Positions 23,575 to 63,576 of a DNA stretch of 64,000 nt are shown here, piece by piece; the stretch's first letter is position 1, and the number at the start of each line of letters is the position of its first letter. This DNA is from Thermoflexus hugenholtzii JAD2 (GTDB taxonomy: Bacteria > Chloroflexota > UBA11872 > UBA12225), in assembly GCA_945865725.1 (NCBI GenBank), contig CAMBEO010000004.1, positions 2,016-66,015 of the forward strand. The letters are read 5' to 3'. A model generated the notes under the pieces. That model saw only the letters and a program-made list of their open reading frames with translations. It had not been told where the DNA came from and ran no database searches. The translations under genes were made by a program, and so were the position numbers.

Positions 23575-23683
23575 CCGCGCGTGCCAGCGGTTCCCGCGGG
23601 CGGCGTGATCGGGGTGGTCGCGGTGCCCTGCGATAGCATGTGTCCAAGGGCGCGCCGACTTGGCCGCCTCGGGGAGGTGCCAA

Positions 23684-24055
23684 GTGACCGATATTGCGAT
23701 CTGGGTAGTTCAGGGCCTCCTGGCGCTGGCCATGCTTGCTGCCGGGACGATGAAGGCGGCCACGCCGCGAGACCGTCTCATGGCCCGGATGGAGTGGGTC
23801 GGACGCTTCCCTCCTCTCGTCCCGCGCCTGATCGGGATCGCCGAGGTCGCCGGCGCGATCGGCCTGGTCGCCCCCCAGGCGCTTGACGTCCTGCCGGTCC
23901 TTACTCCCGTCGCGGGCGCGTGCCTCGCCGTACTGATGGCGGGCGCGGTCAAGGTTCATCTTGACGAGGGACGCCCCTTGCGCGGCATCGTGCCTGGCGT
24001 GTTCGGCCTGCTTGCCCTTGTCGTCGCGATCGGGCGAGGCGCCGGCTTGGCCTAG
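23684..24055 (+). CDS. DoxX family membrane protein
   Basis: GTG at 23684 lies 7 nt after GGGGAGG. There are four hydrophobic helices, and 'IGIAEVAGAIGLVAP' is typical of DoxX. The stop TAG (24053-24055) lies inside the CTAG terminus of the repeat element. Confidence 0.7.
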   Translation: MTDIAIWVVQGLLALAMLAAGTMKAATPRDRLMARMEWVGRFPPLVPRLIGIAEVAGAIGLVAPQALDVLPVLTPVAGACLAVLMAGAVKVHLDEGRPLRGIVPGVFGLLALVVAIGRGAGLA

Positions 24056-24199
24056 GAGCCTGTCCGATAATCGCAGGGACGTGGCAGGACGTCCGTCCGG
24101 GTCCCGGGGGGCGTGCGCCTCGGACCACGGCTCACGACGCAAAACGGGGCTGGTCGCCAACCATTCCCACCGACCGCCGAATCGTCGGACAAGCTCCTA
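24052..24199 (+). mobile_element. MITE-like inverted-repeat element, copy 1 (~148 bp)
   Basis: Termini are CTAGGAGCCTGTCCGA ... TCGGACAAGCTCCTA(A), inverted with one mismatch. It is about 88% identical by eye to copy 3 (63427-63576). Both ends overlap the stop codons of the convergent flanking genes. No conserved reading frame exists between copies, because indels shift the frame. Confidence 0.65.
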
Positions 24200-24769
24200 A
24201 CGGCCCTTCTTGCGACCGGTCCCGCCGTCGCCCCGACGCCCAGGCCTTCGACCACCTGGGCGGGGCGGTCGGGCCGGGTCCGTGCCATCGACTGCGGCAG
24301 CGCGTGGCTCGGTGCGGCCGAGGATGGCACCGTCGAGGCGCGCGCCACGGAGGCATGCCGTTTCGAGGCGTGCCCCGACGAGGACCGCGTGCCGGAGGTC
24401 GGCACCGGCAAGGTCCGCACCGCCCAGGTCCGCGGTGGCGAGGATGGCGTGCAGGAGGGTCGCGCCACCCAGGCATGCGCCCGACAGGTCGGTGGCCGTC
24501 AAGTTCGTCGCGGTGAGGTCGGCCCCGGTCAGGTCGGCCGAGACGAGGCGCGCCCGATGGAACTTGGCGCCCCGAGCGGCGACGCCGGAAAGGTTCGCGT
24601 CCCCAAGGTCTGCCCCCGAGACGTCGGCACCGCGCAGGTCCGCGCCCGAGAGGTCCGCCCTGCGCAAGTCCAGTCCCGCGAGGTTCGCTCCGCGCAGGTC
24701 CGCACCAGCGAGATTCGCCCCGCGCAGGTCCCGTCGGCGCAGGTCATCGACGTCGATGCGAGTACCCAT
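24197..24769 (-). CDS. pentapeptide repeat protein
   Basis: Nearly the whole 190-aa product is A(D/N)LxG pentads ('ANLAGADLRGANLAGLDLRRADLSGADLRGADVSGADL...'). Confidence 0.85.
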   Translation of the reverse strand: MGTRIDVDDLRRRDLRGANLAGADLRGANLAGLDLRRADLSGADLRGADVSGADLGDANLSGVAARGAKFHRARLVSADLTGADLTATNLTATDLSGACLGGATLLHAILATADLGGADLAGADLRHAVLVGARLETACLRGARLDGAILGRTEPRAAAVDGTDPARPPRPGGRRPGRRGDGGTGRKKGR

Positions 24770-27432: not shown

Positions 27433-27568
27433 GCTCTTATCCAGAGAGGTGGAGGGACACGGCCCGACGAAACCCGGCAACCACCGCGTGCGCCATGCGC
27501 CGCGACAGGTGCCAACTCCGGCCGTCGCACCGCGGGCGCATGCCCGTGGATCGACGGCGAGATGAGCA
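27433..27568 (+). promoter_or_regulatory. SAM-I (S-box) riboswitch aptamer
   Basis: The near-consensus core is 'CTCTTATCCAGAGAGGTGGAGGGACACGGCCCGACGAAACCCGGCAACC' ... 'AGGTGCCAACTCC' ... P1 3' strand 'GATGAG', which pairs with CTTATC. It lies in the 320-nt gap upstream of the thrC-like gene. Confidence 0.85.
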
Positions 27569-27600: not shown

Positions 27601-27628
27601 CCCCGGCTCCTCGGCCGGGGTTTTTGTT
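27601..27628 (+). terminator. intrinsic terminator (riboswitch expression platform)
   Basis: CCCCGGC-TCCTCG-GCCGGGG stem-loop followed by TTTTTGTT, 33 nt after the aptamer and ~100 nt before the ATG at 27725. Confidence 0.75.
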
Positions 27629-27724: not shown

Positions 27725-29017
27725 ATGGCAATCTCCGCCCCGGTGAGGCCGGGCGGCGCGGGTCACCCGAGTGGTAACGACGGGGGCACGCGCATCCTGG
27801 GCCTTGCCTGCCGCGAGTGCGGCGCCAAGTACCCGACCAGTCCGGTGCACGTGTGCGACCGCTGCTTCGGCCCGCTCGAGGTGCAGTACGACTATGACCT
27901 GATCGCCGAACGGGTCAGCCGCGAGTCGATCGCGCGCGGCCCCGACAACATCTGGCGCTACCGCGACTTGCTGCCGCTTGACGGCGAGGGGGACGTGGAC
28001 TGGCGCGTGGGGTGGACGCCCCTCGTGCGCGCGACCCGCCTCGGCAAGGCCTTGGGTCTTTCCAACCTCTGGATCAAGAACGACGCGGTCAACCCGACGT
28101 ACTCCTTCAAGGACCGGGTCGTCGCCGTCGCCGCCGCCAAGGCGCGCGAGTTCGGCTTCGACACCTTCGCGTGCGCCTCGACGGGAAATCTCGCGAGCGC
28201 CGTCGCCGCCGCCGGCGTCCGCCTCGGGTTGCGCACCTACGTCTTCCTGCCCGCCGACACCGAACCGGAGAAGTTCGTGAACGCGCAGGTCTACGGCGCG
28301 AACGTCATCGCCGTGAATGGCACCTACGACGACGTCAATCGCCTCTGTTCGGAACTCGCCGACCAGAAAGGGTGGGCGTTCTGCAACATCAACGTCCGCC
28401 CGTACTACTCCGAGGGGTCCAAGACCCTTGCGTTCGAGGTGGCGGAGCAACTCGGTTGGGAGGTGCCTGATCACGTCGTGGTGCCGATCGCCTCGGGTGC
28501 CCAGCTGGTGAAGATCACCAAGGGCTTCGGCGAGCTCGCGCAGATCGGTCTGACCTCCGGCAAGTTGCCGCGCGTCTCCGGCGCGCAGGCGTCGGGATGC
28601 AACCCCGTCGCTAACGCGTACTCCCGCGGGTGGGACGCCATCAAGCCGGTCCGCCGCCCGGACACGATCGCCAAGTCGCTGGCGATCGGAAACCCGGCCG
28701 ACGGCTACTACGTCCTCAAGATCGTCCGCGAGACCGGTGGCGCGATCGACGAGGCGACCGACGCCGAGATCACCCACGGCGTGCGCCTGCTCGCCGAGAC
28801 CGAGGGCATCTTCGCCGAAACGGCGGCCGGCGTAACTATCGCCGTGCTGAAGAAGCTGGCGGCCTCGGGCATCGTCAAGCGCGACGAACGCGTGGTGGCG
28901 TACGTCACCGGCAATGGCCTGAAGACCCCGCAGGCAGTCATTCCGCTGCTTGGCCAGGCGCCGGTGATCGCGCCGAACCTCGACGCCTTCGACGCGTACC
29001 TCACCGGGCAGGCATGA
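27725..29017 (+). CDS. threonine synthase-like PLP enzyme with N-terminal zinc ribbon (candidate MetM-type O-phosphohomoserine-dependent homocysteine synthase)
   Basis: ATG at 27725 follows AGGGGAG. Motifs are the 4-Cys ribbon 'CRECGAKY...CDRCFG', PLP-lysine 'PTYSFKDRVV' and 'ASTGNLA'. Placement behind a SAM riboswitch and in front of a sulfur-carrier gene argues against a plain ThrC role. Confidence 0.75.
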   Translation: MAISAPVRPGGAGHPSGNDGGTRILGLACRECGAKYPTSPVHVCDRCFGPLEVQYDYDLIAERVSRESIARGPDNIWRYRDLLPLDGEGDVDWRVGWTPLVRATRLGKALGLSNLWIKNDAVNPTYSFKDRVVAVAAAKAREFGFDTFACASTGNLASAVAAAGVRLGLRTYVFLPADTEPEKFVNAQVYGANVIAVNGTYDDVNRLCSELADQKGWAFCNINVRPYYSEGSKTLAFEVAEQLGWEVPDHVVVPIASGAQLVKITKGFGELAQIGLTSGKLPRVSGAQASGCNPVANAYSRGWDAIKPVRRPDTIAKSLAIGNPADGYYVLKIVRETGGAIDEATDAEITHGVRLLAETEGIFAETAAGVTIAVLKKLAASGIVKRDERVVAYVTGNGLKTPQAVIPLLGQAPVIAPNLDAFDAYLTGQA

Positions 29018-29061
29018 GCCGCCCGGTACTGCACCCAGACACCTCGGACAGGAGCATCAGA

Positions 29062-29340
29062 ATGGCCGCCAAGGTCCTCATCCCCACGCCCCTGCGCGCC
29101 CTCACGGGCGGCGCCTCGTCAGTGACGGTCGAGGCCGGCACCGTCGGGACGGTCCTTACCGCCCTCGAGACCGCGCACCCGGGCTTTCACGACCGCCTGT
29201 TCGACGACCGCGGCGACCTGCGCCGCTTCGTCAACATTTATGTGAACGGCGAGGACATCCGCTTCCTCGAGGGTCAGGACACGCCGGTCGCCGCTCGCGA
29301 CGAGGTGAGCATCGTCCCGGCCGTCGCCGGCGGCCGCTAG
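29062..29340 (+). CDS. CysO/MoaD/ThiS-type beta-grasp sulfur-carrier protein (MetO-like), C-terminus ...AVAGGR
   Basis: GGACAGGAG RBS upstream; 92 aa. 'KVLIPTPLRALTGG', 'FVNIYVNGEDIRF' and 'IVPAVAGG' closely parallel M. tuberculosis CysO as I recall it. One Arg follows the Gly-Gly. Confidence 0.8.
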   Translation: MAAKVLIPTPLRALTGGASSVTVEAGTVGTVLTALETAHPGFHDRLFDDRGDLRRFVNIYVNGEDIRFLEGQDTPVAARDEVSIVPAVAGGR

Positions 29341-29394: not shown

Positions 29395-29682
29395 CCAGGA
29401 ACCCGTCCGACATTTCGGCGATTCGGTGGGGAAGGTCGGCGACAAGGACCGAAGACCGGGCTGAGCCATGGTCCGCGGGCATCCTTGCCCGCCCTGCCGC
29501 CGCGGGACGATCGCCAAGGCCACGGTCGCCCGGACGGCTGCCAGATGGTGAGCCGGGAACGGCCTTCGTTGCCCCTCCCCGGCGGGCAGGGATGCCCGCG
29601 GACCTGCACCCCGGGGCGCACGCGCCCCTTAACCCGGGCGTACGCCCTGCGGTGTCCCTGCGATTGTCGGACAGCCTCCTAG
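29395..29682 (-). mobile_element. MITE-like element, copy 2 (reverse orientation, ~288 bp, composite)
   Basis: The left end 'CCAGGAACCCGTCCGACATTTCGGCGATTCGGTGGGGAAGGTCGGCGAC' and the right end 'GTCCCTGCGATTGTCGGACAGCCTCCTAG' align to the reverse complement of copies 1 and 3. The centre carries ~140 extra bp, including an inverted pair of a 24-nt hairpin motif. The terminal CTA (29679-29681) is the stop codon of the larE-like gene. Confidence 0.55.
29470..29604. repeat. inverted pair of 24-nt hairpin motif GGCGGGCA(A/G)GGATGCCCGCGGACC
   Basis: 29470-29493 (GGTCCGCGGGCATCCTTGCCCGCC) is the reverse complement, with one mismatch, of 29581-29604 (GGCGGGCAGGGATGCCCGCGGACC). Each unit is itself a 7-bp hairpin, GCGGGCA-NGGA-TGCCCGC. 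Confidence 0.75.
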
Positions 29683-30587
29683 CCTTGGATGACCGGCAGG
29701 AGGCGCCGCGCCGCGGGGATCGCCGGGATGGCGCCGAGGGCCTCGTTCATGCTGCCGCTTCGGTAGCCCTGCAGGTCGAGGGCGACGTGCTTGAAGCCGA
29801 TGGCCTTCAGGCGCGTGGTGATGGCCAGGTTCAGGCCGTCGGCGAAGAAGCGTGCCAGATCCGCGGCCGGCACCTCGATACGCGCCACGTCGCCGTGATG
29901 GCGCACCCGGACCTGCCGGAACCCCGCCTCGTAGAGGGCCATCTCGGCCTGGTCGATCTGCGCAAGCTTCTCCGCCGTGACGCGTTCGCCGTACGGAATG
30001 CGCGACGAGAGGCAGGCGAAGGCCGGCTTGTCCCACGTTTCGAGGCCGAGGTGGCGCGAGATCGCGCGAATCTCCGGCTTGCCGAGGCCCGCCTCAAGAA
30101 GCGGCGCGCGGGCGCCCATCGCCTTCGCGGCTTGCATCCCCGGGCGGAAGTCGCCGACGTCGTCTAGGTTGGCACCGTATGCGACCGTCGCGAGTTCACG
30201 CGCGGCCGCTAGCGGAAAGATGGTGGTGAACAGTTCCTGCTTGCAGTAGTAGCAGCGGTTGGCAGGATTGCTCGCGTAGTTCTCGTCGGCCAACTCGTGC
30301 GTCTCGACGAGGACAAGCTCGACCCCGATGTCGCGCGCCAGGCGCTTCGCCTGCTGCAACTCGTGGGCGGGGTAACTCTCGGACACTGCGGTGGCGGCGA
30401 CGGCGCGGTCACCCAACTCGTCGACGCAGACCTTGAGGAGGAGGGTGCTGTCGACGCCGGCCGAGAAGGCGACGAGTGTGCTGCCAAGGTCGCGACAGGC
30501 GGCGCGCAGGCGGTCGTAGGCGGCGCGTTCTCCGGCGGTGAGCGCGGGGGCGTCGGCAGGTGCGTCGATGGTCGTCGTCATGATCAT
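29679..30587 (-). CDS. LarE-family (TIGR00268-like) PP-loop ATP pyrophosphatase / sulfur transferase
   Basis: PP-loop 'VAFSAGVDS', 'NRCYYCK' and 'FACLSSRIPYGE'. Start taken at ATG 30587 ('MIMTTTID'); 30581 and 30626 are alternatives and no clear RBS is present. Confidence 0.7.
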   Translation of the reverse strand: MIMTTTIDAPADAPALTAGERAAYDRLRAACRDLGSTLVAFSAGVDSTLLLKVCVDELGDRAVAATAVSESYPAHELQQAKRLARDIGVELVLVETHELADENYASNPANRCYYCKQELFTTIFPLAAARELATVAYGANLDDVGDFRPGMQAAKAMGARAPLLEAGLGKPEIRAISRHLGLETWDKPAFACLSSRIPYGERVTAEKLAQIDQAEMALYEAGFRQVRVRHHGDVARIEVPAADLARFFADGLNLAITTRLKAIGFKHVALDLQGYRSGSMNEALGAIPAIPAARRLLPVIQG

Positions 30588-30734
30588 GGCAATCGTACCC
30601 GCGTGGTTCCGTGGCGGGCCTGCCATCTCGGCCGGCGGGACGTCGGCGATCCCAGTCCCCACCCGCTCCGGAGCGGTGGTTCACCCACCCTTATGGTGCG
30701 CCGTACGGCGATTCGTCCGTCACCCCCCCACCCC

Positions 30735-62403: not shown

Positions 62404-63399
62404 ATGGAGTACCGCATCCTCGGCGCCTCGGGCGTCCGCGTCTCGGTGTTGAGCCTCGGGACGGCGTTCTTCGGCATCCGGCCGGGATGGCGCGATGTCC
62501 CCGGGATCGTCGGTCGTGCCCTCGATGCCGGCGTCAACTTCATCGATACCGCGAACTCGTACGGCAACCAGGCACGTTTCGACCGGCCGGGCGTGCCAGG
62601 CGTGCCGGGATGGCGCGAACGGGCGTCGTCCGAGGAGCTGGTCGGGCGCGCGATCCGCGGACGTCGTGATCGCGTCGTCATCGCGACGAAGGTGCAAGAA
62701 CGCGTTGGCGATGGCCCGAACGACGGCGGCCCCGATGGTGGGGGACTGACCAGGAGGCATGTCGTCGAGCAGTGCGAGCGATCGCTGCGTCGCCTCGGCA
62801 CGGACTGGATCGACGTGTACTACGCCCACCACGTCGATCCGACGACGCCCATCGAGCAGTCGTTGCGTGCATTCGACGACCTGGTGCGCGCGGGCAAGGT
62901 CCGCTACGTCGGCCTTTCCAATTTCTCCGGATGGGAACTCGCCCGCGCGCACGGCATCTGCGAGCGCCGTGGTTGGTCCGTCCCGGTCGCGATGGAGATG
63001 GCATATAGCCTAGCGAAGCGGGGGGTCGAGGCGGAGGTCGTCCCGGCGTGCCGCGCCCATGACGTCGGTCTAACTTGCTACTCGCCGCTCGAGGCGGGCC
63101 TCCTGACCGGTGAGGTCTCGACGTCCCGTCCGGCTGGCGACCCGGCGCGCGTGCGCCGGAACGGGCAGGCGTTCTCGCCCGCGCAGGTCAACCTTGCGAT
63201 GCGGCTCGAAGCGCTTTCGGCGTCATGGGGCACCCCCTCGGCCACGCTTGCGCTGTCCTGGCTTGCGGGTCGCCCGGGCGTCACGAGCGTGATCCTTGGC
63301 CCGGAGACGGTCGCTGATCTCGAGGCGGGGATCACAGGTGTGGCCCATGCCCTGGACGAGGGACAACGCGCCATCCTTGACGACCTTCGCGTCGAGTAG
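62404..63399 (+). CDS. aldo/keto reductase
   Basis: GGAGG RBS upstream. 'MEYRILGASGVRVS', 'FIDTANSYG' and 'RYVGLSNF' are present. Confidence 0.85.
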   Translation: MEYRILGASGVRVSVLSLGTAFFGIRPGWRDVPGIVGRALDAGVNFIDTANSYGNQARFDRPGVPGVPGWRERASSEELVGRAIRGRRDRVVIATKVQERVGDGPNDGGPDGGGLTRRHVVEQCERSLRRLGTDWIDVYYAHHVDPTTPIEQSLRAFDDLVRAGKVRYVGLSNFSGWELARAHGICERRGWSVPVAMEMAYSLAKRGVEAEVVPACRAHDVGLTCYSPLEAGLLTGEVSTSRPAGDPARVRRNGQAFSPAQVNLAMRLEALSASWGTPSATLALSWLAGRPGVTSVILGPETVADLEAGITGVAHALDEGQRAILDDLRVE

Positions 63400-63426: not shown

Positions 63427-63576
63427 CTAGGAGCCTGTCCGATCATCGCAGGGACGTGGCAGGACGTCCGTCCGGGTCCCGGGTGCGTGCGCCTCGGGGC
63501 CCACGACTCGCGCCGCAAAACGGGGCTGGTCGCCGACCATTCCCACCGACCGACGAAATGTCGGACAGGCGCCTAG
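63427..63576 (+). mobile_element. MITE-like inverted-repeat element, copy 3 (150 bp)
   Basis: Termini are CTAGGAGCCTGTCCGA ... TCGGACAGGCGCCTAG, a 16-nt inverted repeat with one mismatch and palindromic CTAG ends. The right-hand CTA (63573-63575) is the stop codon of the convergent MFS gene. Confidence 0.65.

Follow-up and report, generated by a model that had tools for sequence, protein, structure and literature searches.

Repeat copies in the window and their neighboring genes

As listed in Table 1, three copies of a repeated element are present in the window, which is the whole stretch of 64,000 nucleotides analyzed here (contig C4:2016-66015 of the assembly of Thermoflexus hugenholtzii JAD2). 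All three were found where the initial annotation had placed them, and they are mutually homologous. The identity between copies 1 and 3, previously estimated by eye at about 88%, is 90% by BLAST and 92% over the aligned columns. The terminal inverted repeat was likewise recovered as CTAGGAGCCTGTCCGA and TCGGACAGGCGCCTAG, with TCGGACAAGCTCCTAA at the right end of copy 1. The element is non-coding, as had been proposed: indels between copies break every reading frame, and the elements of 120-290 bp show no similarity to transposases.

The DoxX, pentapeptide-repeat, LarE-like and MFS transporter genes were each described earlier as ending on an element terminus, and all four coincidences are correct. 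All of these genes are supported by Pfam, including a DoxX_2 domain in the DoxX gene (E = 5.5e-22) and pentapeptide repeats in the truncated gene beside it (E = 1.9e-34). At copy 3, removal of the element and one TA leaves GAC TAG CAT, in which the MFS stop is retained. The MFS tail is 10-13 aa longer in the same-genus relatives; therefore, this stop may not be ancestral. The spacing of 28 nt between the aldo/keto reductase gene and the element is the same on an independent assembly contig. Where other assemblies encode an identical aldo/keto reductase, the element is present or the contig breaks within it, and a presence/absence polymorphism at this locus was therefore rejected.

A fifth coincidence, suggested at a MetO-like gene whose TAG (29338-29340) is followed by TCGGAC, did not hold. 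The gene is in fact a ThiS-domain gene, CTAG-TCGGAC matches neither orientation of the repeat, and the terminus of copy 2 lies 55 nt further on; the TCGGAC is regarded as chance. ThiS/MoaD-type sulfur carriers usually end in Gly-Gly, and this ORF, ending in ...AGGR, runs one residue further. The long ORF call at this gene (28630-29340) would imply a 140-aa N-terminal extension. Two features in this part of the window are unrelated to the element: a SAM (S-box) riboswitch at 27434-27568 (Rfam, 62.7 bits), upstream of a gene at 27725-29017, and a canonical terminator with a hairpin and T-run after the riboswitch at 27601-27620.

Table 1. Element copies and adjoining genes in the window
Feature	Position	Strand	Remarks
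DoxX-family gene	23660..24055	+	TAG 24053-24055 formed by left TA and first G of the element
Candidate MITE copy 1, short form, 148 bp	24052..24199	+	TA at 24053-24054 and 24198-24199
Copy 1 inverted repeats	24055-24067 and 24185-24197		
Truncated pentapeptide-repeat gene	24197..24769	-	Ends on right-hand TAG of copy 1
ThiS-domain gene	29062..29340	+	TAG 55 nt outside copy 2; no element end
Candidate MITE copy 2, long form, 288 bp	29395..29682	-	Reverse orientation
Copy 2 degenerate end	29395-29410		C-CA-GGAACCCGTCCGA
REP-like palindrome inside copy 2	29475..29492	+	GCGGGCA-TCCT-TGCCCGC; first of inverted pair
REP-like palindrome inside copy 2	29582..29599	-	GCGGGCA-GGGA-TGCCCGC; second of inverted pair
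Copy 2 intact end	29667-29679		TCGGACAGCCTCC, followed by TA 29680-29681
LarE-like PP-loop ATPase gene	29679..30662	-	TAG 29679-29681 formed by element TA and G
Aldo/keto reductase gene	62404..63399	+	Convergent with MFS gene; own TAG 28 nt before the element
Candidate MITE copy 3, short form, 150 bp including flanking C...G	63427..63576	+	
Copy 3 TA duplication	63428-63429 and 63574-63575		
Copy 3 inverted repeats	63430-63442; 63561-63573		Left GGAGCCTGTCCGA; right TCGGACAGGCGCC
MFS transporter TAG stop	63573..63575	-	Right TA plus last base of the element; gene runs beyond the window

Size and distribution of the element family

The host assembly is a MAG of 2.30 Mb in 106 contigs, with 70% GC and 85% completeness. 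Searches of the whole assembly with BLASTN and nhmmer recovered about 25 loci on 18 contigs, and the flanks of these loci are unrelated. The element is therefore a dispersed repeat family rather than a by-product of gene duplication, and its similarity is not confined to three duplicated-gene loci in the window. Complete copies in the assembly comprise five long ones (288-290 bp), six short ones (120-163 bp) and two of intermediate length; about a dozen half-copies were also found, and several of these lie at the end of a contig. When up to 1 mismatch is allowed, the terminal 16-mer occurs 22 times in the assembly, compared to no occurrence for the reversed control and at most 4 per genome across 400 genomes of the phylum.

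The element is carried by none of 40 relatives, two same-genus genomes among them, and two metagenome scans with the element's own arms gave no matches. Pairwise identity is 78-86% among the long copies and 79-92% among the short copies, and divergence of this extent indicates that the family is old.

Long and short forms of the element

The consensus left end reads C-TA-GGAGCCTGTCCGA-TAATCGCAGGGACG, and the consensus right end reads CGCCGAAATG-TCGGACAGGCTCC-TA-(G). GGAGCCTGTCCGA is found at both ends in 13 complete copies, and several other copies have degenerate or missing ends. An alignment of the complete copies gives the order of the long form as left arm, CTGGTCC-GCGGGCATCCCTGCCCGC, about 95 nt, GCGGGCAAGGATGCCCGC-GGACC and right arm. 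In copy 2 of the window, which has the reverse orientation, the middle of the element is about 140 bases longer than in copies 1 and 3. This center is bounded by a nested inverted pair of an 18-bp REP-like palindrome. The palindrome, TGGTCC-GCGGGCA-TCCY-TGCCCGC-CGGGG, has 133 perfect-stem copies in the genome, 122 of them intergenic, with none in the reversed control, and inverted pairs or short arrays of it are frequent.

What is left of the REP stem base differs among the short copies without the center, being GTCCGCGGACC in C26:11950 and TCCTGGTCCGCG in C6:58888, while the short copies at C4:26067, C4:65442 and C69 have one common junction. These findings suggest that the long form is ancestral, that its center was lost repeatedly, and that the short form was later mobile. 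In such a history, two inverted copies of the REP-like palindrome found throughout the genome would have entered the older long form (288 bp), the palindromic center would have been lost more than once to give the forms of about 150 bp, and at least one short derivative would have transposed after losing it. Copy 2, which had been taken for an enlarged version, is thus better viewed as the older form. One further copy outside the window, at C1:116000-116473, has lost its left terminal repeat, and an internal stretch of about 208 bp, in which the nested palindrome pair lies, is duplicated in tandem; its right end still forms the stop of a SerRS-like gene.

Element ends shared with IS1182-family insertion sequences

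A scan with the 18-mer CTAGGAGCCTGTCCGAYA in one genome per prokaryotic species gave at least 120 loci in other phyla. Among the matches listed, most belong to Nitrospira, Elusimicrobia, Desulfuromonadales and Dehalococcoidia, with some in Proteobacteria and Actinomycetota. Inverted pairs of CTAGGAGCCTGTCCGAYA among these matches lie 135-190 bp apart, in most cases 135, 166, 169 or 187 bp. These pairs represent MITEs of other lineages, which have only about 20 terminal nucleotides in common with the family described here. MITEs with CTAGGAGCCTGTCCGACATTG ends, especially those of 187 bp, are very common in MAGs of Nitrospira, Elusimicrobia and Desulfuromonadales (loci L014-L133, at least 120 loci).

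Three other pairs among the matches listed are 1.58-1.62 kb apart (L048:901-2482, L082:5671-7279 and L077:211-1829). These larger elements are bounded by the same 15-16-mer as the MITE, and their hosts are Dehalococcoidia and Burkholderiales MAGs. The L048 and L077 elements enclose one ORF each, of 450 aa and 475 aa, and the proteins score 332 and 362 bits against the NCBIfam model NF033551, "IS1182 family transposase" (cut-off 270). Both carry DUF772, DDE_Tnp_1 and DDE_Tnp_1_6 domains, and the L082 protein is 78% identical to that of L048. A tblastn search of plasmids with one such protein led to annotated IS1182-family transposases. In the two plasmid elements inspected, from Streptomyces and Roseomonas, both sides end in CTAG|GAGC..GTC. 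Because their ends are common to 1.6-kb elements of the IS1182 family, the copies in the window can be recognized as a MITE with IS1182-type ends, and comparison of the termini identifies an IS1182-family insertion sequence as the probable parent.

Other parents were considered and rejected. IS630 and IS5/IS427 elements also target CTAG; however, the genome has no DDE_3 or DUF4096 matches, and the matching insertion sequences belong to the IS1182 family. The sole DDE_Tnp_1 match of the assembly is a 518-aa IS4-like ORF (C47:145-1701), and no inverted repeats like the MITE ends were found around it. A tblastn search with the proteins of the matching insertion sequences detected no IS1182-family transposase in the 85%-complete assembly, and the matching insertion sequences themselves were found in other genomes and not in that of the host. 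MAGs often lose insertion sequence copies; a missing partner is consequently a weak negative.

Target site and TA duplication

In 72 complete MITEs of other phyla (among the matches listed), about 71% of the ends, leaving aside those that the search pattern fixed, have C on the left or G on the right as the outer base. In the host genome this is the case at 28 of 35 element ends. The G and C just inside the TA never vary in those 72 MITEs, even where the outer base is different. Since the inner bases are constant while the outer flank varies, only TA is duplicated. Duplications of 4 bp (CTAG) or 3 bp, as in IS5/IS1031, were rejected because changes in the outer flank are not accompanied by changes in the inner G/C.

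Comparison with empty sites, a step proposed in the initial annotation, was carried out at three loci using two same-genus genomes that are without the element and whose flanking genes are 66-87% identical. At C24:10289, removal of the element and one TA gives CGCCCC-TA-GCGCC-ACC-ATG, and the relatives read CGCCCG-TAG-CGCC..ATG and CGACCG-TAG-CGCC..ATG. The same pattern was seen at C46:6476 and at the LarE locus. At all three loci TA is duplicated. It can be seen that TA is the duplicated target and that C-TA-G is preferred. The copy at C24:10289-10577 is a long form between co-directional genes that are only 13-20 nt apart in the relatives (TAGCGCC..ATG), and the stop of the PrmA-like gene now lies 290 bp from the start of the next gene.

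Stop codons at the element ends

Genes were called in the whole assembly with a home-made codon-bias caller, which gave 1795 genes and 83% coding sequence. At 16 of the 35 recognizable element ends, the terminal TAG (read inwards) serves as the stop of a gene that is transcribed toward the element; Pfam or orthologues back about 10 of these 16 genes. These ends are distributed over 14 of about 22 loci (64%).

Orthologues were recovered for nine of the genes with a stop at an element end, and DoxX was compared separately. Seven genes (SerRS-like, LarE-like, C35:20938, PrmA-like, C46:6477, C1:110384 and DoxX) have orthologues that end at the same residue; among the 13 orthologous sequences, 11 stop with TAG and 2 with TAA. 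The LarE-like orthologues share the final residue (..LLPVIQG/S) with TAG in both relatives, and both relatives also use TAG at the same codon of DoxX. Since the orthologues already stop at the same codon, most insertions appear to have gone precisely into a pre-existing TAG, and the stop was rebuilt on insertion because the element starts with G. The earlier suggestion of targeting to TAG/CTAG at gene ends is thus borne out in essence, in the form of a C-TA-G target with TA duplicated.

The second suggestion, that the element donates stop codons, applies to a minority of ends; for most of them the TAG is ancestral. The clearest donated stop is that of the truncated pentapeptide gene, and the stops at C1:110098, C1:37459 and C69:2806 were probably donated as well. 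Compared to relatives, the host has 11 additional aa in the product of the C1:110098 gene and 2 fewer in a TrpA-like protein. At C1:37458 and C69:2658, the inferred codons before insertion are TAT and TAC, suggesting that stop codons are preferred but not obligatory targets.

In both same-genus relatives (L140:376-2998 and L141), the pentapeptide protein has 488 aa. There, about 1.9 kb separates the pentapeptide domain retained in the host from DoxX, and it consists of the pentapeptide C-terminal domain and a 377-aa metallophosphoesterase gene, neither of which was found anywhere in the host assembly. Residues 154-190 of the truncated ORF form a 37-aa tail that is not conserved. Copy 1 thus seems to adjoin a lineage-specific deletion, with the truncated ORF running into the TAG of the element. 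An origin of copy 1 from overlapping convergent stops (CTAG/CTAA) is not supported, given the 1.9 kb and the longer pentapeptide protein present at this place in the relatives.

Frequency of stop codons among available targets

CTAG occurs 1238 times in the genome, compared to 6374 expected from base composition, which is a five-fold depletion. Among the 1213 sites outside the elements, 313 are stop codons, 380 are intergenic and 520 lie in coding sequence. Stop codons therefore account for a quarter of all CTAG sites and 45% of those outside coding sequence. The proportion of loci at stops (14 of 22, or 64%) is far above the 16% for any TA (p<1e-6); its excess over the CTAG null of 45% has p=0.06. 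Target preference and purifying selection are thus sufficient, and the coincidence with stops requires no special recognition of gene ends. In other phyla, ORFs of 100 codons or more terminate at 34 of 167 ends, compared to 22 of 334 in two control frames (among the matches listed).

Complete copies lie between convergent genes in 10 of 13 cases, compared to 41% of CTAG stops facing a convergent neighbor (p=0.01). The association with stops and with convergent gene ends that had been noticed in the window therefore extends to the assembly. The convergent excess is attributed to selection against polar effects or hairpins between co-directional genes, and a retained function fits equally. Stop usage in our gene calls is TAG 847, TGA 789 and TAA 100; TAG as the commonest stop is unusual for a genome of 70% GC. 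The proportion of stops facing a convergent neighbor is 38% for TAG, 49% for TAA and 24% for TGA.

Proposed origin of the family

Taken together, these results favor, with a probability of about 0.85, a MITE with IS1182-family ends that inserted at C-TA-G targets, duplicated TA and rebuilt stops as TAG. A transposase supplied in trans would recognize the GGAGCCTGTCCGA ends and insert the element at TA, preferably within C-TA-G, with duplication of the TA. Since the element begins with G from either end, each junction would read TA|G, and a TAG or TAA stop that was hit at its TA would be rebuilt as TAG for a gene on either side. Insertions inside coding sequence would be removed by selection. 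The survivors would then be those at gene ends, mostly between convergent genes, where no downstream gene is disturbed.

Against this origin stand the results of the searches, in which no IS1182 transposase was found in the assembly, no copy in the 40 relatives and no match in the metagenomes, so that matching insertion sequences are seen in other genomes only; for the transposase search, this is a weak negative. Copies only 78-92% alike, together with no matching transposase in the assembly, suggest that the family is probably no longer mobile.

Alternative explanations and RNA tests

A broader idea is that the TA|G terminus, invariant in the IS1182 clade across at least 6 phyla, is an adaptation to TAG/TAA stop codons as harmless landing sites where the stop is restored on both sides, and that the amplified Chloroflexota copies have been retained where convergent genes meet, to act as hairpin insulators or transcript-end elements. 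We consider this speculation rather unlikely.

Retention for a function was also considered by itself. In that case the hairpin would have been exapted and kept between convergent genes as a bidirectional terminator, an insulator or a 3'-end stabilizer of mRNA, with the overlap of the stops as part of its role. The convergent bias agrees with such a role, and REP, ERIC and Correia elements reportedly influence transcript ends or stability; for RU/ERIC, these effects have been discussed (PMC2759123). The folds of the element are also highly stable, with -84.4 kcal/mol (z = -5.1) on one strand and -78.3 kcal/mol (z = -2.8) on the other, and the internal hairpins predicted earlier are seen in the minimum-free-energy structure of the first of these folds. 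However, any element with inverted ends of 16 nt must fold so, and the convergent bias is equally predicted by purifying selection against polar insertions. A consensus scan for intrinsic terminators on both strands of the three window copies revealed no terminator-like site and no T-run after the stem, the flanks reading CTAGTCCGGG and CTAGCATCGC. No Rfam family matches the element at the gathering threshold. In the 16-bp terminal stem of the 13 complete copies, there are no compensatory double changes compared to about 25 broken pairs, a pattern that points to decaying transposon ends and not to a conserved RNA helix. Furthermore, several copies have degenerate or missing ends, and the element is absent at the same gene pairs in both same-genus genomes. 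Exaptation is therefore judged unlikely, and the bidirectional terminator and structured sRNA family put forward in the initial annotation are both unsupported.

Homing to stop codons or gene ends would mean that the transposase or a host factor reads a 3'-end feature beyond CTAG/TA, and that TA|G evolved to regenerate stops as a safe haven. The G beside TA is indeed invariant in every lineage examined, full-length insertion sequences included, the coincidence with stops recurs in several phyla, and the share of loci at stops is somewhat above the CTAG null. This excess is not significant, however, and copies were also found 11-100 nt downstream of stops (C26 and C24:25620), at TAT/TAC codons (C1:37458 and C69) and, at C6:58888, in the promoter region between divergent genes. 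In the other phyla, about 80% of the ends are not at stops of long ORFs (among the matches listed). Homing of this kind is very unlikely.

DDE transposition is characterized by terminal inverted repeats together with a target duplication. A REP/BIME-type repeat spread by RAYT or replication-linked copying is scarcely credible: the long form holds an inverted pair of GCGGGCA-N4-TGCCCGC, but short forms are dispersed without the palindrome, the terminal inverted repeats of 13-16 nt are identical to those of IS1182-type insertion sequences and accompany a TA duplication, and no Y1 transposase domain (PF01797) was found in the assembly.

Comparison with known systems

The family is closest to insertion sequences of the IS1182 family, and its terminal (C)TA|GGAGCCTGTCCGA agrees exactly with that of the 1.6-kb elements in Dehalococcoidia and Burkholderiales MAGs. 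The element differs from them in having no transposase gene and an interior that is unrelated to any insertion sequence found. A passage in PMC5678879, citing Siguier et al., describes the IS1182 family as heterogeneous, with some members targeting palindromes. In the portions available of the literature found, no CTAG/TA preference is described for this IS1182 clade. The literature found also contains no description of this MITE family or of systematic regeneration of TAG stops; the family is accordingly undescribed, while MITEs as a kind are already known.

MITEPsy1 of Pseudomonas syringae, which derives from the IS5-family element ISPsy2, is about 100 bp long, has 18-nt inverted repeats and inserts at CTAG or YTAA (PMC3189936). 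CTAG targeting is common to both; however, MITEPsy1 duplicates 4 nt and the element here TA only, and no association with stop codons is reported for MITEPsy1. IS5 and IS1182 transposases are related, as weak IS5 matches for proteins of the L048/L077 type indicate.

ERIC/RU-1, YPAL/RU-2 and Correia elements have TA termini and duplicate TA; like the element here, they are 100-170 bp long with long terminal stems (PMC2759123, PMC5896051). Units of the ERIC type adjoin or overlap the 3' ends of genes, and occasionally supply or remove a stop codon (PMC2759123). They differ from the present family in their ends, in a transposase source that is unknown or different, and in that TAG is not systematically regenerated. 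The family here, in contrast, has an IS1182-type parent and a strong preference for CTAG in a CTAG-poor, high-GC genome. As for REP/BIME, the nested palindrome of the long form behaves like a REP, being mostly intergenic and often in inverted pairs, whereas the whole MITE differs from it in its terminal inverted repeats and target duplication, and no RAYT was found in the assembly.

No new mechanism is opened by the family, which is ordinary mobile DNA. Repeat ends that double as convergent stops can be explained by target choice and genome composition, and this calls for caution in the annotation of high-GC genomes. Unrelated MITEs in Nitrospira, Elusimicrobia, Desulfobacterota, Chloroflexota and others can also be traced to a single IS1182 clade whose ends are nearly identical. 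At the level of genes, the effects in the host comprise one truncated gene with the adjacent 1.9-kb loss and several remodeled C-termini.
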